Below are positions 4,845-15,218 of a stretch of 64,000 nucleotides of DNA, piece by piece. The stretch is taken from positions 96,001 to 160,000 of the forward strand of contig CAWJTV010000015.1 in assembly GCA_963845755.1 (NCBI GenBank), written 5' to 3'. The position numbers and the translations under genes are program-made. Origin of the DNA: an uncultured Planctomycetota bacterium (GTDB lineage Bacteria; Planctomycetota; Planctomycetia; Isosphaerales; Isosphaeraceae). Below the pieces are notes generated by a model. It was given only the letters and a program-made list of their open reading frames with translations. It did no database searches and was not told the DNA's origin. Within the stretch, counting starts at the first letter, position 1; each line of letters opens with the position of its first letter.

Positions 4845-7465
4845 TCATGGCCTCTCGCCAGCCCGCAGAATCAGGCGATCGACGTCGGCCCAGAGGGCCT
4901 GCCAGGTTTTCCGCTTGGCCCCGGGGAGCTTGATCAACGCATCGGGATCGCGGACGCCGGCTAGGTCGCTGTCGGCGTTCCAGTGTTGGAGGGCCTGTGC
5001 AACGCTCGCCCGCTGCTTCGGATTGCCCCCATCGAGGATTCGGCCCCAGGCCGCCAGTTCGGTCCTGAGCCAGTCGAGAGCCTGGCCGCGGAGTTTGGCA
5101 CGCGCGGGCTCGTCGGGCGCGGGATCATCCTTGCCTTTACCGCAGCCGGCCAGCGCCGCAGTGCAAGCGGCGTTGTAGGCGTGCTGAGCACGGCGATCAT
5201 CGCCGAGTTTCGGGTCGGCCGTCAGGGCTTCGGTGTACAGCAGGGCGGAGGCCGCGCGCTGTCCCTGGTTGTAGAAGAGAACGGCGAACTCGATGCCTTC
5301 AGCCGGGGTGGCGGGGTGGTCTTGGCCCTTGAGGATGGCAGGGAGGCGACCAGCGTGGGCGACCAGCCACTCGGCCTGGCGCACCCACTCGGCCGAAAGC
5401 GCACGCCATCCGGGCTGCTTCAAACCGAGTTCGGGTCCCGTCTTGTACTCGCGGAGCGATTCTTCATAAAGCCCTTGGGCGCGCAAGGCTTCACCGAGAT
5501 TGGTGTGGGCCGTGACGTTGTTGGGCGTGAGTCGGACAATGGTGAGGAATTCGTCGGTCGCCTCATCGAGTTTACCTTGATCGCTCAGGGCGACGCCGAG
5601 ATTATGATGGGCCAAGACGTCGTCGGGCTTCAGTCGGATGGCGGAGCGATATTCGGCGAAACCCTCGTCGTGCATTCCCTGAGGCGCAGGGCGTTGTCGA
5701 GGTTCCTGTGGGCCGTGGCGTTGCTGGGCGTGAGTCGGACGATGGTGCGGAATTCGGCGATCGCCTCATCGTCCTTCCCCTGAGCGAGGAGGGCGAGACC
5801 GAGGTTGTGATGGGCTGCGGCGAGGTCGGGCTGGAGTCGGGTGGCGGTACGATATGCGGCAATCGCCGCCTCGTGCTTCCCCTGAGTGCGAAGGGCGTTG
5901 CCGAGGTTGTGGTGGGCCAGGACGTAGCCGGGGTGGAGTCGGATGGCGGTGCGATACTCGGCGATCGCCTCATCGTGCTTCCTCTGGGCAGACAGGGTGT
6001 TGCCGAGGTACGTCTGGGCCGGATTGCTACCGGGCCGGATCGCAATCGCGGCCGTCAGGTGCCGCACCGCCTCCTCCGGTTGCACCGCATAGGCCAGGTC
6101 GTAGTTCACCCAGAAGTCGTCCGGACGCAATCGCCAGGCCTGGCACAGAGCCGCGCCGCACCGTCCCGATCGCCGACCGCCTTCAGCCGCAGGGCGAGTA
6201 GCCGCAGGCTCTCGGCGGGCTGAGCGTCCAGTGCCTTCTCATCACCGGCCAGCTTGTGGAGGGCCTCGACCGGCGCGGCGTCCCTGGCACTGGAGCCGGT
6301 GCGCAGGGCATCGCGCAGGGATCGGGGTCGGCGGCGCGGGCCGCCGCTATCAGCCGAGCCGAGGCTTTCTCATCGGCGCGGGCCGCACGGCGGACCATGG
6401 TCCAGTCGTCCAGGAAGGAGGCCAGCTCAATCGGCGCGCTGCGGCCGGCGATCCAGGCGCCGGCCTGCTTGGGGTCGGTGGCATCCTGGTCAAGTCCGGC
6501 CTTGCGGAAGGCGGCGGCATACTCGGCGTTGGACCGCTTTGGATCGTTTTGGTCGGCGCGATCGCCACGGGCCGCTTCCAAGTCGGCCAGGAGTTTGCGA
6601 TCGGTCTCGAGCCGCTCAGCCTGGAGCAAGGCTTCCTGGCGGCCTCGCTCCCGTTCGGCGATGACGCGGACGATCTGGTCCTTGCGCTCCAGGTCGGCCA
6701 GTTCCGGCATCTGGTCGGCGGCGCGGTTGGCCTCGGCCATCGCTTCGTCCCAGGGACTGACCGTGCCGGCCGGGGCGGCGTGGGCCCCTGGCTTTCAAGA
6801 CGATGACGTGGTCCAGGATCCCGGCGATCTCGTGGGCAACCACGGCACGGCGGGCGTTGCGGTCGGAGACCATCCAGGCCGCCCCGCCACCGCCCAGGAT
6901 CAAGGTGGCGACGATGGCCGCGGCCAAACCGGCGGTCATACGCCGCGCCCGTAGCTCGGCCCGGGCCTTGCGCTCGGCCTCAACGGCGCGGGCGGTCTCA
7001 TCCGCCCGGGCCAGTTCGGCGGTACGCAACCGCTCCTGGACGCCGGCCTGGTAATCGGTCAGTCGGTCGACCACGATCCGCGGGCGGTCGAGTAGCTCGG
7101 CGCCAGGCAGGACCTGGCCAGCTCGATCAGTTCAGACTCGGCATCGCTGGCGTCAACCCGGGCGAAGGCGTCGGACAGGTCGTCGCGGAGGGCTTTGCGG
7201 AAGACGGAGCTGCCGTCCGGGCCGGTGTAGGGCGGAGAACCGGTCAGGATTTCGCAAAGGATCGCGCCCAGGCCGAATACGTCGGCCCGCCCGTCAAGCG
7301 CCTCGATGTCGCCGTGGCCTGCTCGGGGGGCATGTAGGCCGGCGTTCCCATCACGCTGCCGGCCTGCGAGGCGTCGGCATCGGAGCCGGTCCGTAGCGTG
7401 CGGATGACGCTCACCTGCTCACGCCGCTCGACGGCCCGAGTTTCGTCGGCCACCCCGCCCGAGGC
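4845..7465 (-). pseudogene. Ser/Thr protein kinase with TM segment and TPR repeats; N-lobe deleted, several frameshifts
   Basis: GSVMGTPAYMPPEQA, D.RADVFGLGAILCEILTG, a TM helix, TPRs (AHHNLGNAL) and the planctomycete STK tail YNAAC.AALAGCG...ALDWLR..L..W. No GxGxxG, VAxK or HRDxK motifs are present. Confidence 0.85.
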
Positions 7466-7924
7466 CTGCACCTCGGCCAGCAGGGTGAGCGCCCAGTCGC
7501 GCTCGAAGAGCCGTTCCGGAGTCAGGTCGTGGCCTTGGTCGGCGCCGGAACGCCCTTCCGCCGCGCCCGAGTCGATCGACACGAATGTCCGACCACCGCC
7601 GCGTGTGAACGCGACTGCTCGATCATGTGCGTTGGCCAGGACGTGTATGCAATCCGTGAGCAGGAACGCGCGGAACCGCCCCTTATGGCGGTCGGCACTG
7701 GCGAGCACGGGTTTCTCCAACAGGCGGACGAAGTAGTCCTGGGTCAGGTCGAGTGCAGTGCTGGGATCGTGCCCCTTACGCCGAATCAGCGCATAGACCG
7801 GGAACCAATACGTGGCGCACAGCTCTGCCAGGGCGTCGCGCGCGTCGGGATGCCCTGGGTCGGCGGCGGCGACGCGGCTCCAGCACGTCGAAGGGAAGCG
7901 GGCATCCGAAGGTCTCTCGGATAT
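7466..7924 (-). pseudogene. Kinase-associated ECF sigma-70 factor, N-terminal part (region 2 and linker; region 4 missing)
   Basis: RFPSTCWSRV...ALAELCATYWFPVYALIRRKG...DLTQDYF...KGRFRAFL...RGGG...PERLFERDWALTLL; it then runs directly into kinase sequence. Confidence 0.85.
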
Positions 7925-7977
7925 GGTCCGTTCCGTGCAATGGGGAGCGATTGGGTGACACGCGCAAGTGCGAACCG

Positions 7978-8478
7978 TCACGCCAACTCACCGACCTTCG
8001 CCTTGACGAGGCGCTCGATTTCCTCGACGGCAAAGTCGGTCGCTTCTTGCACCCGGCGTTGCGAGCCGCGCCCGGAGGACTCGATCTGCTTGCGAGCCTG
8101 CTGCCGTATCGACCGAATGGCGACCTTGGCATCCTCGCCGAGCTTCTTGACGTACCGGGCGATCTCCTGTCGCTGCTCGATGCTGATCGGTGGTACGCTG
8201 ACGCTGACCGTCGTCGGGTTGAGCGCGTACGCGCTGAGCCGCGACTCGTTCAGCGCCTTGACCATCGCCGGGACGTTGACCCGATCGAAGGGGATGATCA
8301 GGATCCGGTCCCCTCGTGCCTGGACAGCCCCGAGGCGTTTGATGGCGACCAGGTTCCCCTGGCACGAGACCCGGACAGTCTCGATCATTCCGATGCTGAT
8401 CGTGCCCGTCCGGATCCCGCGGAGCTGATCGGCAAAGTGCCGGACCATTTTCTCAATCCTGGGCTGCCAGTCGTTCAT
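7978..8478 (-). CDS. frr: Ribosome recycling factor, divergent stand-alone paralog (166 aa)
   Basis: LRGIRTG, LIIPFD, NP..VSVSVPPISIEQRQEIARYVKKLGEDAKVAIRSIRQQA, VQEATD...IE.LVKAK match the RRF pattern. Not in the rpsB-tsf-pyrH-frr context. Confidence 0.85.
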   Translation of the reverse strand: MNDWQPRIEKMVRHFADQLRGIRTGTISIGMIETVRVSCQGNLVAIKRLGAVQARGDRILIIPFDRVNVPAMVKALNESRLSAYALNPTTVSVSVPPISIEQRQEIARYVKKLGEDAKVAIRSIRQQARKQIESSGRGSQRRVQEATDFAVEEIERLVKAKVGELA

Positions 8479-8576
8479 GTGCAGTCCTGTGTTGATCGAT
8501 GATCCCGAACCCGTGCAGAATCCGGCGCATCTGCCTCGTGATCGGATTCCGATAAAGCTTGGAGGGATCAGCCGCC

Positions 8577-9479
8577 ATGAGCACCTTGCAACGACTGACC
8601 GACCGCGGCCTGATCAAACCTCCACGATGGCTGCCGGGCGGTGTCCAGTACGAGACGATTATGGGCTCGGTCGCCTACGGCGTCTCGTCCGACACCAGCG
8701 ATCTGGACCTCTACGGCTGGGCGATCCCTCCCCGAGACGACGTCTTCCCCCACCTCAGGGGGGAGATTCCCGGCTTCGGCACTCCGAAACCCCGGTTTCA
8801 ACGATATCAGGAGCACTACGTCGTTGACCACGATGCCCTCGGTGGCCGTGGGCGAACTTACGACCTGCAGATCTACGGAATCGTCAAGTTCTTCAACCTG
8901 GCGATGCAGAATAACCTTAATATCATCGACTCGCTCTTTACACCGGTGAACTGCGTCCTGCACAGCACGCGTGTGGGGGATCTCGTGCGCGAGAACCGGA
9001 AACTGTTCCTGCACAGAGGCTCCTGGTCGCGATTCAAGAACTATGCGTACTCGCAATTGCACAAGCTGTCCACGAAGAGCGCCCAGGGGAAGCGGGCCGA
9101 CATCGTGGCCGAGCACGGTCTCGACACGAAGTTCGCCTACCATGTCGTTCGCCTCATCCTCGAAGTCGAGCAGATCATAGTCGAGGGCGACATCGACCTT
9201 CAGCGGAACCACGAACAGCTCAAGGCCATCCGTCGGGGAGATTGGACCGAAGCGCACCTCCGGGACTGGTTCTCAGCCAAGGAGTCGGAGCTCGAAAAGG
9301 TCTACTCCGAGAGCAAGCTCCCGTCCGCACCCGATGAAGATCAGATTCGATTGCTGCTGCTGAACTGCCTGGAACACCATTACGGCCTCATGGAGGACTG
9401 CGTCGTCGATCCGGACCGCGCCGTGGCCGCCTTGCGGAACGTCCAGTCGGAATTGGAGAAGGTGAGAGATCTTCTATGA
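8577..9479 (+). CDS. DNA polymerase beta superfamily nucleotidyltransferase (RlaP / PF10127-like)
   Basis: MGSVAYGVSSDTSDLDLYG (GS...DxD motif), KFFNLAMQNN.NIIDSLF, DTKFAYHVVRL, LKAIRRG. RBS GGAGGG at 8561. Confidence 0.88.
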   Translation: MSTLQRLTDRGLIKPPRWLPGGVQYETIMGSVAYGVSSDTSDLDLYGWAIPPRDDVFPHLRGEIPGFGTPKPRFQRYQEHYVVDHDALGGRGRTYDLQIYGIVKFFNLAMQNNLNIIDSLFTPVNCVLHSTRVGDLVRENRKLFLHRGSWSRFKNYAYSQLHKLSTKSAQGKRADIVAEHGLDTKFAYHVVRLILEVEQIIVEGDIDLQRNHEQLKAIRRGDWTEAHLRDWFSAKESELEKVYSESKLPSAPDEDQIRLLLLNCLEHHYGLMEDCVVDPDRAVAALRNVQSELEKVRDLL

Positions 9480-10266
9480 GTCATCCCGACGAGAACGATC
9501 CGGCCGCCCCCGATCGGTTGCAGGCCGTCGTGTCCCGGCAGTCGTATCCTCTGATTATCGTGACGATCAGCGGCGCGCACCTCTAAGGCTTTCCCTCGCC
9601 AGATTCGGACCACGACCTGCGAGGCTGCCAATTCCTGCCCATCGAGGAAGCCGCCGGGCTCGATGCGGGACGAGAGACCATCGAGTCTTCGACGGACGAA
9701 TCAGGCGTCGAGGTCAACTTGGTGACCCACGATGCCAGGAAGTTCTTCAAGCTGCTGCTCGCGAAGAACGGCTACCTCCTGGAGCAGTTGTATTCGCCGC
9801 TGGTCGTCCTCACAACGCCCGAACATGAGGATCTGAAATCCATTGCACGCGGATGCATCACTCGGCATCATAACCACCATTACCGTGGTTTCGCGAGGCC
9901 CTGTGGCGGCTATTCGCCCGGGACATCCCGTCGCGAATCAAGCCGCTGCTGTATGTGTATCGCGTACTGCTGACGGGTATCCACCTCCTGCGAACGGGTG
10001 AGGTCGAAGCGATCCTCCTGCGTCTCAACGAGAACGCCCGACTTCTCCAACTCGGTGACCTGATCGTTCGCAAGCTCGAAAGGACGGAGGGAGTCCGCTT
10101 GGACGATGGCGACCTGGAGTTCCATGGGCGCGAGTACGAACGACTCCAGGGCGAACTGGAACAGGCCCACCGCGATAGCCGGATGCCGGAAGGACCGACT
10201 GCCCGACAGGCGCTCAACGATCTACTGGTCCGACTCAGGTTCGCGACCAACCGTCAAGGCCACTGA
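9476..10266 (+). pseudogene. Second RlaP/YcgL-like nucleotidyltransferase with nonsense codon (TAA 9584-9586) and frameshift (~9897)
   Basis: ATGA overlap with the upstream stop. ISGAHL*GFPSPDSDHDLRG, VTHDARKFF.LLL.KNGYLLEQLYSPL, KPLLYVYRVLLTGIHL. Confidence 0.85.
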
Positions 10267-10308
10267 TTCCGTGATCCCCCATCGGGTGGCCAAGGACCGG
10301 TTTCCCGT

Positions 10309-10701
10309 TCAATCGGTCTTGCCAAGCCGCTTGAGTGCTTTCGCCGCCAGGTCGCGAGCGCGGGAGTCCTTGTCGGTCTTGCTCAGCGTGTCGAGCTGGT
10401 CCTTGATCGCATCACCGGGCTGTTTCAACTTGACCACCGCCAGGACCGCGTCACGACGGACCAGCGGGTCGGTATCGTGGAGCGCCTCCGCCAGGGCGTC
10501 CGCCACCGTGGGGTCGGAGTCGCCGACATTGCCGAGCTTGAGCACCGCTTGCCGTCGCACCTGCGGCTTGGGGTCATGCAGCTCGGCGATCCAGGATTTC
10601 ACCTCGCGGCCGCCCGCCAGTAGCGGCCCAGGCGCCTCGCCGCTGCAGCCAGCCAGCACGATCGCGAACAGCAAACTTGACAGAACTTGGGTCCGTTGCA
10701 T
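10309..10701 (-). CDS. HEAT-repeat lipoprotein
   Basis: Lipobox LAGC; HEAT-like units LHDPKPQVRRQAVLKLG, LHDTDPLVRRDAVLAV, DKDSRARDLAAKAL. Confidence 0.8.
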   Translation of the reverse strand: MQRTQVLSSLLFAIVLAGCSGEAPGPLLAGGREVKSWIAELHDPKPQVRRQAVLKLGNVGDSDPTVADALAEALHDTDPLVRRDAVLAVVKLKQPGDAIKDQLDTLSKTDKDSRARDLAAKALKRLGKTD

Positions 10702-11984: not shown

Positions 11985-14900
11985 TCAGGGTTCGTTTACG
12001 TTGAGATTCGCGTTCAAGACTTTGCTGATCCGGAACTGGATCTCCTTGAGGTGGGCCAGGGTGGTGTCCTCCATCTTGAGGTCCTTCTTGCCCACGAGGG
12101 TCTCGATCTTCCGGCCGACTTCGTCGAGGTGCAGCCGGGCGAGGTTCTTGGCGTCCGGCGGGGGCGAGGACTGGCCGCCGTAAAAGAGGATATACCGGTA
12201 GCCGCCAAGTGAGTAGTCGTTCTTGGGCCCGAGGACCATGTCGCTGAGCCGCTTGACGTATTCGCGCTGAAGGTTGCGGCGAATTGTCGAGATCGTGAAC
12301 GGCGAGCTGCCCGAAGGTGGCGCGCCCAGCTCGGTGAAGATCCCGTCGCTCAAGGAGCGGAAGACCTCGGCGATCTTCAGCGGGTTGCTGCCGGCCTCGC
12401 TCTGCGTCTCCTGGTTCTGGATCCGCTGGAGCACGCTGGAATCGAGGCACTGATCCAGTGCGATTTCCTGGAGGTTGAGGATCATCCGGTAGATGGGGTA
12501 ATCCATGCCGCCGTAGAAAGAGTAGCGACTGTCCTGCCACGACTCGGTCATGAGCTTGCGCAGCAGGCCGGGCGAGAACTGAAACGCCTTGTCGCTGAGG
12601 ATCTGGTCCACCAGCAGTTTGAGGGCGTCGCGCTGGCGGGCGCCCACGATAGGCGTGATGGGATCGCGCGCCTTGTCGGTCCCCTTGAAGTCGCGGTTGA
12701 CCGACTGACCGCCGATGTATTCGGCCGCGAGATAAGCCCCATTGCCGAACTGGCTGATGCAGGAGGAGAACGCGCTGCGGAGCCGCGCCGAGGATTCCCC
12801 GTCCTTGACGACCTTCTTGTCCAGGTCCTTGAGCAACTCGCCGGCCAGGGTCATCCGCATCTTGCCATAGGCCAGGGTGTCGGAGGTCAGGTCGTACGTG
12901 TTGACCTGGGGATCGTTGTTCATGAAGTCATCGTCGGTGGCGAAGGCCAGGTCCGGCTCGGGCGATCGGGAGGCGAGCTTCTTCAGCTCGGATTCGTCCG
13001 TCGTGTAGGCATACGCGATCGCCCAGTAGTCGTAAGGCCCGATCGTAGTCGAACGCGTAGTCCCCCTGCTTCTGGCCCTTGGGAGCCACGTTGATAGGGT
13101 TGTAGTCCATCACGCTGCCGGCCATCCCCTTGACCCGGGTGATCGCAGTATCGTTGACCTCCTCGGGCTTGAGCATGATGCTGGCCTTGAAGTTGTGCCG
13201 CAGACCCAGCGAGTGGCCGACCTCGTGCATGACGACTTCCTTGATCGCCTGGCCGAGGAACTCATCCGGGAGCTTGACTTCTTTCTCCTTTTCCTTGTCC
13301 TTCTTGTCCTTGTCGGCGTCCTTCTTGTCCTTGTCGGCGTCCTTCTTCTTGTCCTTGTCGGCGTCCTTCTTCTTGTCCTTGTCGGCGTCCGCGTCCTCCG
13401 AAGCGGCCATGGCCAGGGCCAGGCTGGCGAACCGCATCTCGTGGGACTTGGCCGCCGCGTAGTTGCAGGTGGCCAACCGGCCGTTGGTCAATCGCTGGCG
13501 GAGCTGGACCTGGATCGGATCCCATCCTGCGGGCACCACGTCGAGCGCGACGGGGATGTTCCCGTTCGCTGGCGCGACCGAGCCGGGCAGGCCGTTATGG
13601 CCGAGCAGCGCCGCATTCAGGGCCGCGGCGCGTCGGGTGCCCGGCGGGGGCACGGGCAGCCCATAGCCTTGTTTCATCGCCATGATCGGGCTGATGATCT
13701 CCCCCATGGCCAGGGGGACCATGCCGGCGGAGAGATCGGCCCGGGTTCCCGTGGCCGTTGGGGTCGGTACGCCGACCAGGAACGCGTACTCTTCCTTCCA
13801 CGTCTTGATCCAGCTCGCGTCGAAGATCACGTCGCCATCGATCATTTCGCCAGTAATCGGATTGCTACGGAGTCCCGACATCGCGAAGGTCGAGCCCGTG
13901 GTAATCCAGCGCAGGGTGCAGTAGTTGATGTCCTCCGGTTCGAAGTCATCGCGCTCGTTCTGCCAGCGCACGGCGATGGCGTCCTTGAAGCCGATCTTCT
14001 CGAAGGCCTTGTTCCACTCGAGGATCCCCTCCTGGACATAGGGCCGATATTCATCGGGCACGTTGTCTTCGATGTACCAGACGATCTGCTTCTTGGGGGG
14101 AGAGCTTGGCGCCGTGGTTGGCCTTCTCGAGCCGCCACCGATTGATCATTCGCTTGGCGTTGGTGTCCGGATTGGGGTTGGCGAAGTCGGTGACCGCGTT
14201 GAGGAAGTGGCCGACGCGGTAGTCCGCCATCCGGGAGTGATATCCGGGATCCGGCGTCTTGCACAGGCTGTAATGCAACACCAGGGTGATGCCGCGCGGG
14301 TCGACCACGGGCGATTCACCTCCGAAGTAGTACCTTCCGAATCGGCCGCCGCTGAAGGTCGCCTCCACCTGGATCTCGACATTCTCGGGATAGGCGCGGA
14401 TCTTGAACCATCGCGAGCGGTTGCGGTCCAGGAACCCGTAACCGATCTCGGCGAAATCGGTCATGAAGATGTCGGCGAAGTCGATGACCAGCCCGCCGCC
14501 CCTGGGGCTGATGCTCAGGATCGGCAAGGCCATGAGGATCGAGTCGGTGTAGTTCTGCTTGACCGCCTTGTCCAGCGGGGTTCCCGACGGCGCGGTGAAG
14601 TGGATGTTCTTGCGGATGAGCTGGAGCTTGTCTCCGACCCGGTGGAACATCAGCACCCACTCATCGCCGAAATTGAGGGGCGTCCCCGCGCTGGCGGAGC
14701 CCCGGGCGATGACCATCGGAGCCAGGATCGGATGATCGAGCAGTTGCGGCTTGATCTCGGCGTAGAGGTGCTGGTCCTTCTCATGGAGCGTGATATAACC
14801 TTCGTAGGTCTTCGCGCCCTGGGTCAACTGGTTGAAGTCCTGAAACTGCCGTCCTGGCGTCGGGCGGCCGAACTGTCGGGCCGTCGACCGGACCTCGACC

Positions 14901-15004
14901 GCGACAGGGGGGTCTTCGAACTCCTGGGCGTACGTTGACTGCGCGATGCCCCCAGTCGCTAACAAACCCCCGGAGAGCGCCATCAGAAGCACTCGCTTTA
15001 TCAT
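11985..15004 (-). CDS. Exported zinc-dependent metalloprotease (DUF5117/DUF4953, EcxA-like); two frameshifts (~14095, ~13050)
   Basis: Signal peptide; AD.RVGHF, INRWRLEK, GILEWNKAFEKIGF, HEVGHSLGLRHNF zinc motif, SVMDY Met-turn. Split over three ORFs. Confidence 0.9.
13282..13395 (-). repeat. Coding tandem repeat (21-24 nt units) giving a DADKDKK(K) charged linker
   Basis: GTCCTTGTCGGCGTCCTTCTT(CTT) repeated about 4 times inside the metalloprotease. Confidence 0.9.
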
Positions 15005-15218
15005 CGCTTCGTCCCCCAATCAAGGTTGCTCGTGAAATGGTGTCGTGATCGACATGATCAATCCGAAAAGTCAGCCTCGGCCTTGCGGTTTCGCCATGCG
15101 TCAAAGACGATGTACCTAGAATACACCTCGCCTCGGACGATAGTAAATGTTCTAGTGAATTCGGTCGGCGGGTCTTCGATCCTTAGTCCATGGTCTTTCG
15201 TCCTTTGTGATCAGACGC

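Follow-up and report, generated by a model that had tools for sequence, protein, structure and literature searches.

A short second ribosome recycling factor next to RlaP-type nucleotidyltransferases in an Isosphaeraceae genome

The locus and its genes

We have analysed a stretch of 64,000 nucleotides, hereafter the window, from an uncultured Planctomycetota bacterium of the family Isosphaeraceae (assembly GCA_963845755.1, contig CAWJTV010000015.1, positions 96,001 to 160,000 of the forward strand). It contains the gene for a short-type paralog of ribosome recycling factor (RRF), which we call RRFp and which lies head-to-head with two nucleotidyltransferase genes, NT1 and NT2 (Table 1). The source genome amounts to 14.27 Mb in 49 contigs and is 87.9% complete. 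A first-pass annotation, made from the letters of the window alone, had pointed to an intact 166-aa RRF-like gene and, divergent from it at 98 bp, an RlaP-type nucleotidyltransferase. Both genes are there as described: the open reading frame (ORF) of RRFp is uninterrupted, NT1 matches the RlaP family PF10127 (gathering threshold, 23 bits), and the gap from ATG to ATG was confirmed.

Table 1. Features at the RRFp locus, with positions counted along the window (relatives carry G numbers)
Feature	Position	Strand	Match or remark
RRFp, short-type RRF paralog, 166 aa, intact	7978..8478	-	PF01765, 97.8 bits
Spacer between RRFp and NT1, divergent, intergenic, 98 bp	8479..8576	.	
NT1, intact RlaP-family (PF10127) nucleotidyltransferase, 300 aa	8577..9479	+	PF10127, 56.5 bits
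NT2, second PF10127 gene, disrupted (pseudogene or assembly error)	9476..10266	+	PF10127 in pieces, 78.3 + 34 bits
Premature in-frame TAA in NT2	9584..9586	+	Tyr of SGAHLYGF in G020, G046, G048 and G070
HEAT-repeat protein, conserved flank	10309..10701	-	HEAT_2, 51.3 bits

RRFp exceeds by far the PF01765 gathering threshold of 29.7 bits, its residues 16-165 covering profile positions 2-163 of 164, and it scores 82.7 bits on NCBIfam TIGR00496, the frr equivalog, under the cut-off of 149.1. The possibility that this was the only frr of the genome, left open by the first-pass annotation, is settled by a canonical tsf-pyrH-frr operon on another contig (C40), whose 186-aa RRF gives 193.2 bits on the same model; RRFp is therefore a paralog. 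As had been noted, none of pyrH, tsf and uppS adjoins it: it stands outside the tsf-pyrH-frr neighbourhood, between the nucleotidyltransferase pair and a set of sigma/kinase fragments. RRFp is also a constrained, long-resident gene, under purifying selection (pairwise ratios of nonsynonymous to synonymous substitution, dN/dS, of 0.13-0.30 with three orthologs) and with a GC content at third codon positions (GC3) of 0.86, similar to that of the adjacent genes. We conclude that the genome has, beside the canonical frr, a true second RRF gene, RRFp, whose product represents a short type of its own. Database annotation names proteins of this type simply "ribosome recycling factor". Scanning the spacer between RRFp and NT1 for sigma-70-like promoters gave 0 sites, an Rfam search of it gave 0 matches, and a PADLOC scan gave 0 matches.

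The AlphaFold2 model of RRFp, built on a 62-sequence alignment, reached a predicted local distance difference test (pLDDT) score of 91.8 and has the L-shaped RRF architecture: a three-helix bundle (domain I; helices at residues 4-21, 100-135 and 140-165) into which an alpha/beta domain II is inserted, residues 36-94 being rich in beta structure. With this model, Foldseek retrieved 27 PDB RRF chains at E<=1e-3, an Arg132Gly mutant structure among them. When the canonical RRF of this genome was modelled in the same manner (pLDDT 94.4), its helices came out at 3-26, 108-145 and 151-185. Counting from the GIRTG, IRxIR and Q..TD anchors, helices 1 and 4 of RRFp each lack some 6-7 residues at the domain-I tip, and 10-14 alignment columns are missing at the loop between helices 3 and 4, in agreement with the earlier statement that RRFp lacks the tip loop. 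The other peculiarity reported at that stage, IRTGTIS in place of IRTGRA, holds equally, the motif being GIRTGTIS in RRFp and GIRTGRAN in the canonical RRF of the same genome. Across the RRFp clade T26 and S28 are nearly invariant, the former being the Thr that replaces the Arg of the RTGRA hinge motif. Domain II is re-patterned, and SAYALNP stands in place of the canonical LGLSPN. Among the 62 aligned paralog, short and canonical RRFs, the sole invariant columns are R122 and R125 (the IRxIR of helix 3), which we take to be equivalent to E. coli Arg129 and Arg132. RRFp most likely still works on the ribosome.

Regarding the nucleotidyltransferases, the ATG chosen as the start of NT1 is backed by the conservation of M1-S2-T3 in 25 orthologs. 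NT1 orthologs were found in 32 of 81 family genomes, near full length and with 68-93% identity, and the gene is strongly conserved (85% mean column identity over the 25 orthologs; dN/dS, 0.03-0.08). An ATGA overlap at 9476-9479 joins its end to the start of NT2, and both genes carry a G-S...DxD stretch, read by eye, which we take to be catalytic. Of the initial claim of two coupled nucleotidyltransferases, the overlap and the two PF10127 frames stood, and the integrity of the second gene did not: besides the premature TAA, NT2 shifts by 1 nt from frame 2 to frame 1 near 9890-9897, at a place where relatives are unbroken. NT2 is intact in G020 (same genus), G046 and G070 (176.8 bits on PF10127); damage in relatives consists of a frameshift in G048 and one in-alignment stop each in G040 and G023, compared with the double lesion in the window. 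A soil-metagenome contig of 151 nt, covering 9580-9730, matches the window at the TAA, but the TAA falls near the end of this contig, and the sparse contigs of the four DNA runs, all from one soil study, do not reach the frameshift. The frameshift may be a sequencing or assembly error, because other genes are broken in the assembly, namely an EF-G gene, a tsf-pyrH-frr operon on contig C44 and a met-zincin gene.

These and further broken genes are described here for the record. One of the genome's three EF-G-like genes (C36:505470-508838) is frameshifted after ~460 residues, a hint that the assembly contains indel errors. At the end of contig C44 (113163-114935) there is a near-identical second tsf-pyrH-frr with several frame breaks that runs off the contig, probably a copy of the C40 operon that was poorly polished and not a third frr. 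Within the window, RRFp is followed on its own strand by a 245-aa ORF whose GTG at 7981 overlaps the RRFp stop by 4 nt; it gives a weak Sigma70_r2 match and shows, by eye, a kinase-like GTPAYMPPEQ stretch. After it come overlapping ORFs with TPR pieces at 5630-6130 and 4845-5675 (minus strand), and the whole of 4845-7981 (minus strand) looks like one large sigma/kinase/TPR gene in fragments. G020, G044 and G070 have a DUF4058 gene in place of these fragments. Finally, three abutting ORFs at 11985-15019 (minus strand) correspond to DUF5117/DUF5118, the first part of Met-zincin DUF4953 and its last part, the middle ORF containing a long Asp/Lys-rich repeat; they are probably one metalloprotease gene split by frameshifts.

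Distribution and kinship of the short type

Our set of relatives is a sample of genomes, many of them incomplete, in which genes were called as crude GC3-based ORF picks. The RRFp clade was detected in 33 of the 81 sampled Isosphaeraceae genomes, with 52-100% identity to RRFp and 173-342 bits, and all 33 also presented a canonical-type match (<=94.5 bits), so that the scores are bimodal. A class-level sample gave the clade (E<=1e-30) in 26 of 73 further genomes of the family and in none of 227 genomes from 21 other families of the class. When a sample of the phylum (n=401) was searched with a short-RRF profile at E<=1e-25, two matches were obtained only in the source genome, with one match in 358 genomes and none in 42; the RRFp clade was not detected in these ~400 others. 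Presence of RRFp is patchy inside genera, and the branching within its clade tracks genus groupings, in keeping with long vertical descent.

A search of 1.84 billion representatives with RRFp returned 12 clusters at E<=1e-30. The matches ranked next included many RRF-like proteins of 155-170 aa which, at 30-40% identity, outscored the typical RRFs of 185 aa. These short RRFs share with RRFp the deletions at the N-terminus and at the loop between helices 3 and 4, as well as two gaps of one residue each in domain II. In the ESM Atlas, the nearest cluster (score 0.92, 165 aa, 112 members) has Uroviricota as the most frequent of its known phyla, and pattern scans, which miss divergent members, located short RRFs on nine IMG/VR contigs of 47-390 kb, one of which carries a tape measure gene, a tail chaperone gene and RNA ligase genes. 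Other routes yielded little: tblastn against GenBank phages gave only canonical-like matches below 31% identity, many in host-looking records; a BFVD fold search gave 0 matches at E<=1e-3; scans of viral contigs with single proteins gave 0 matches; and a scan of genome contigs with the single protein P0143 gave 0 relatives. The scan of metagenome contigs with alignment A2 also caught canonical RRFs (79 of 80 kept loci gave an RRF match and an ORF), and all of its RRFs had at least 179 aa except one, L104 (150 aa), so it offered no useful context for short RRFs.

To place RRFp among these proteins we ran quick IQ-TREE searches under LG+C20 with 78 and 83 rows. In both trees, 19 canonical RRFs, including the genome's own, fell on one side of a branch with support in the Shimodaira-Hasegawa-like approximate likelihood ratio test (SH-aLRT) of 98 and 97, respectively, and phage and metagenomic short RRFs were intermixed on the RRFp side. 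RRFp belongs to a separate clade, as the first-pass annotation had proposed to check, with supports of 99 and 97. An approximately unbiased (AU) test of a tree grouping RRFp with the canonical RRFs of its own lineage, a group chosen after the tree had been seen, gave p = 0.154, so this grouping is not rejected. The shared indels favour a short-type lineage, with fast divergence after a duplication in the family also possible. We regard RRFp as a member of an undescribed short RRF subfamily. A literature search at title level, with subscription journals and supplements outside its scope, found, among the titles listed, none on a second bacterial RRF or a short phage RRF type, and none that joins RRF with RNA ligases.

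Three atypical members deserve mention. In metagenomic ORFs P0126 and P0171 (one of 433 aa, the other of 256 aa) an RRFp-like or short RRF forms the C-terminus, and the 256-aa one begins, as read by eye, with a LexA-like winged helix; they are either fusions or mis-called starts. In L083 (IMG/VR, 157.8 kb) the short RRF at ~8000-8490 reads in two frames and may be frameshifted.

Neighbourhoods of RRFp and its relatives

The nucleotidyltransferase pair is adjacent and divergent to RRFp in five of the 33 paralog loci: the window, G020, G048, G070 and G046. Spacers measure 97-99 bp in the first four, and those of the window, G020 and G048 align well; this shared length in four loci fits one inheritance. 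G046, which is far from the window in the RRFp tree, has an unalignable spacer of 165 bp. The five adjacencies thus go back to a single inherited arrangement and, at most, one other. Both genes occur in 23 of the 81 genomes, RRFp only in 10, NT1 only in 9 and neither in 39, a table that is not a test since the genomes are related. In 18 of the 23 genomes with both, RRFp and NT1 are far apart or on other contigs, the distance in G073 being 13 kb; in G071 the contig ends 400 bp upstream of RRFp, and NT1 was not found in that genome. On the far side of the pair, the HEAT-repeat gene of Table 1 is part of a c3-DUF1559-HEAT block found upstream of RRFp in the window, G020, G048, G080 and G039. A complex prediction for RRFp and NT1 gave scores of 0.00 and 0.00, no answer either way.

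We then asked which families accompany the two genes. The Pfam scan of the RRFp flanks took in 149 of 189 crude ORFs within ~3.4 kb at 32 loci, leaving out one 1,374-aa ORF, for its size, and the 39 farthest ORFs. None of these 149 matched RtcB, TROVE or PrfH, families that the first-pass annotation had suggested looking for, and no phage families appeared in the flanks of RRFp. Recurrent neighbours were a STAS-domain protein (5 loci), thioredoxin (5) and DUF4058 (3), the remainder being unrelated genes. The most suggestive RRFp context found is that of G073 (C3:153417-167911, ~5400-10650), where an RNA ligase, a STAS protein, RRFp, a 152-aa ORF of no family, a second RNA ligase and SmpB follow each other in 5.3 kb. 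The first of these ligases combines a PHA02142 oligonucleotide/oligosaccharide-binding (OB) fold with PF09414, the second is a PF09414 ligase on the other strand, and SmpB lies 2.6 kb from RRFp.

A similar scan around the nucleotidyltransferase pair comprised 94 of 140 crude ORFs at 23 loci, the omitted ones being mostly short ORFs and calls over NT2. Here, G002 had Hen1 close to the pair, G017 had an OB-fold RNA ligase immediately next to NT2, and in G025 SmpB was 2.6 kb away. PF09414 ligases also occur at greater distances: 12 kb (G057) and 18 kb (G078) from NT1, within the same 12-18 kb range in G073, and 34 kb from RRFp in G070. Elsewhere in the family they are hundreds of kb off or on other contigs, the latter being the case in the source genome.

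In phages, seven viral contigs were annotated around the short RRF, and in three of them (L081, L186 and L187) an Rnl1-type RNA ligase gene is no more than 1 kb away, the gap in L186 being 14 bp. The region 4166-8438 of L187 (IMG/VR, 97.7 kb) encodes a peptide deformylase, an AAA_33 kinase-like protein, a fusion of a phosphoesterase (Metallophos) with the Rnl1-type ligase, and the short RRF; genes for an Rnl2-type ligase, a DNA ligase and a BrxL-like Lon ATPase are nearby, and an RlaP gene is 17 kb away. When five whole viral records were searched for PF09511, four had exactly one match, which in three stood beside the RRF. Identity among the ligases of the three contigs is 26-56%, and they are not all on the same side of the RRF; the association is old within the subclade that these three RRFs form. 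The RNA-repair section of a jumbo-phage review does not mention RRF (PMC7824862), and the huge phages are reported to encode one (Al-Shayeb et al. 2020, PMC7162821).

Interpretation and comparison with known systems

The adjacency of RRFp and NT1 is lineage-specific and one of several loose juxtapositions; therefore we read RRFp as an accessory factor and not as half of a two-protein machine. Three such juxtapositions in the family (the RlaP pair, the ligases with SmpB, and G046), together with the linkage to ligases in phages, make a connection with RNA damage plausible. The reading we lean to, with a confidence that stops just below even, is that RRFp serves, when RNA is damaged, as an accessory factor for recycling or rescue. 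In the canonical factor, domain I collides with the P/P-state tRNA, and its tip, from which the mitochondrial N-terminal extension originates, is near the peptidyl-transferase centre (review, PMC9067457). RRFp would dock on the 50S subunit as RRF does and would work with one of the cell's three EF-G-like proteins, and the trimming of its tip, at the end which in the canonical factor is near that centre and collides with the tRNA, could open to it ribosomes that are closed to the normal factor, for instance those blocked by damaged tRNA or rRNA. The neighbouring genes are an RlaP-type cassette, with NT1 alive and NT2 broken here. Two characterised Pseudomonas RlaP enzymes add 1-2 nucleoside monophosphates to the 3'-OH of RNA, and RlaP prefers damaged RNA and is needed to restore heavily damaged tRNA (bioRxiv 10.64898/2025.12.29.696909); in jumbo phages, the occurrence of RlaP parallels that of RNA ligases (Iyer et al. 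2021, PMC7824862).

Several observations weigh against linking RRFp to RNA damage in this way. With adjacency in five of 33 loci and at most two origins, the arrangement is not a conserved operon or module, and the module of RRF and tandem nucleotidyltransferases proposed in the first-pass annotation is weak, NT2 being broken in the window. In G039 the HEAT gene of the DUF1559-HEAT block directly abuts RRFp, with no nucleotidyltransferase pair between, and G044, the sister of G070, also has no pair at RRFp. The flanks examined contain no RNA-repair gene in 27 of the 33 loci, and the neighbours are scrambled. The cassette itself is decaying, since NT2, which directly follows NT1 in 20 of 25 loci, was undetected in the other five, is dead here and is damaged in three others. 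A dedicated extra EF-G partner for RRFp was considered and rejected, as the copy number of PF03764 (EF-G) has a mode of 3 in genomes with and without RRFp. As for the tip, helix 3 of RRFp is just 2 residues shorter, so the tip is thinned and not uniformly shortened; the trimming may change the ribosome states that RRFp can enter, and could relieve the clash with tRNA. In phages, the three ligase-adjacent RRFs form one subclade, with 37-48% identity and the IRTG motif lost, and therefore do not count as three independent events. Moreover, given the outcome of the AU test, the phage-type affinity of RRFp is not proven. The proposal of a specialised RRF tied to RNA repair survives in part: the G073 cluster and the three phage contigs speak for it, and the linkage to PF10127 recurs in no more than five of 33 loci.

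Alternatively, RRFp could be an accessory or back-up recycling factor without any tie to nucleotidyltransferases or RNA repair, its adjacency to NT1 being an inherited accident in a few related genera with heavily rearranged genomes. Four of the five adjacent loci share one spacer length, RRFp and NT1 are unlinked in 18 of the 23 genomes that hold both, the remaining neighbours of RRFp are unrelated, NT2 has died in the window with no visible effect on the constraint on RRFp, and the co-occurrence counts can reflect shared ancestry in part of the family. We take this to be a real possibility, if on the doubtful side. It leaves without explanation that G046 shows the same divergent arrangement despite its distant place in the tree and its unalignable spacer, that RRFp of G073 sits between two RNA ligases and near SmpB with the pair 13 kb off, and that in three of the five phage records searched the short RRF is beside the only Rnl1-type ligase; by a rough estimate, made with no formal test, chance recurrence of such proximities is unlikely in genomes of 6-16 Mb.

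A phage connection of another kind, in which RRFp is a domesticated phage gene, or phages captured theirs from bacteria, with a role in phage-host conflict (to sustain or block translation in infection), is quite improbable. It draws on the viral contigs of 47-390 kb that encode short RRFs along with tape measure, tail chaperone and RNA ligases, on the prominence of Uroviricota in the nearest Atlas cluster, on the free trees, which put RRFp with the short RRFs, on the RRFs of huge phages (PMC7162821) and on the patchiness of RRFp within genera. However, the flanks of RRFp have no phage genes, PADLOC gave 0 matches, GC3 is host-like (0.86), the branching of the clade follows genera as vertical descent would, and the AU test is compatible with a duplication in the family (p = 0.154). 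A prophage origin of the window locus was rejected on the lack of phage families in the flanks. As to the idea, also raised in the first-pass annotation, that the nucleotidyltransferases form a protein-modifying pair that nucleotidylates RRFp or another translation factor, the sole point in its favour is the divergent adjacency, and we give it hardly any credit: among E. coli macromolecules, the characterised RlaP enzymes used RNA alone as substrate (10.64898/2025.12.29.696909), RRFp and NT1 are unlinked in most genomes, and nine genomes have NT1 orthologs with no RRFp.

Taken to its full reach, the reading of RRFp as a factor for RNA damage becomes unlikely, though worth stating. Short RRFs would be the ribosome-side partner of RNA-repair pathways: the thinned tip would admit them to ribosomes that hold a damaged or cleaved P-site tRNA, they would split or clear these with EF-G, and the broken RNA would be freed for RlaP, Rnl and Hen1. 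Large phages would deploy them to counter defences based on anticodon nucleases, and Isosphaeraceae would have retained them on the chromosome as a stress system, of which the RRFp-NT1 pairing and the G073 cluster would be remnants.

RRF generally passes for an invariant core factor with a single gene copy, and paralogs of EF-G are already known to be specialised. A constrained second RRF, remodelled at the tip that governs access to the different ribosome states, would mean that recycling can specialise as well, through a short variant common to one bacterial family and large phages. If the proximity to repair genes is functional, it would add a missing step to models of RNA repair, the removal of broken tRNA from the ribosome, and would explain in a testable way why phages have an RRF of their own; if it is due to chance, RRFp nonetheless illustrates cleanly an RRF subfamily not described before.

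Compared with canonical Frr (PF01765, TIGR00496; PDB 1ge9, 1ek8 and 4v9d), RRFp has the same two-domain fold, the Arg pair and a helix 3 of similar length, and differs in scoring below the equivalog cut-off, in its size (166 vs 186 aa), in helices 1 and 4 trimmed at the tip, in having RTGT for RTGR and SAYALNP for LGLSPN, and in standing outside the tsf-pyrH-frr operon, present only as a second copy. The RRFs of phages (PMC7162821 and the IMG/VR contigs) are, like RRFp, short (157-167 aa), with the N-terminal and tip-loop deletions, the two 1-residue gaps in domain II and the AY motif, and fall on the same side of the tree. In contrast, the RRFp gene is GC-rich, is found on the chromosome and has been passed on vertically within one bacterial family; the protein has only 30-40% identity to metagenomic short RRFs, and keeps the IRTG motif that phage RRFs adjoining RNA ligases lack; the listing of RRF among phage genes in PMC7162821 describes no short type.

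With regard to RlaP (PF10127; Carruthers, Fatma and Huang, 10.64898/2025.12.29.696909; PMC7824862), NT1 and the pieces of NT2 belong to the same family, and in two relatives the pair adjoins Hen1 or an RNA ligase. The family studied here has instead a conserved tandem of two diverged paralogs, usually with no ligase nearby and with NT2 disrupted in the window, and the gene contexts described in those two papers are operons with RtcB or a 5'-P ligase, with no RRF neighbour. A parallel is RtcB-PrfH (RFH), in which the paralog of a translation factor is encoded together with an RNA ligase (Burroughs and Aravind 2019, PMC6514570). There the factor is a release factor and not an RRF, and a tight two-gene core takes the place of the loose, lineage-specific linkage seen here; what the two have in common is that RNA-repair enzymes stand beside a diverged core translation-factor paralog, and that system sometimes carries a Pol-beta nucleotidyltransferase too (PMC6514570).

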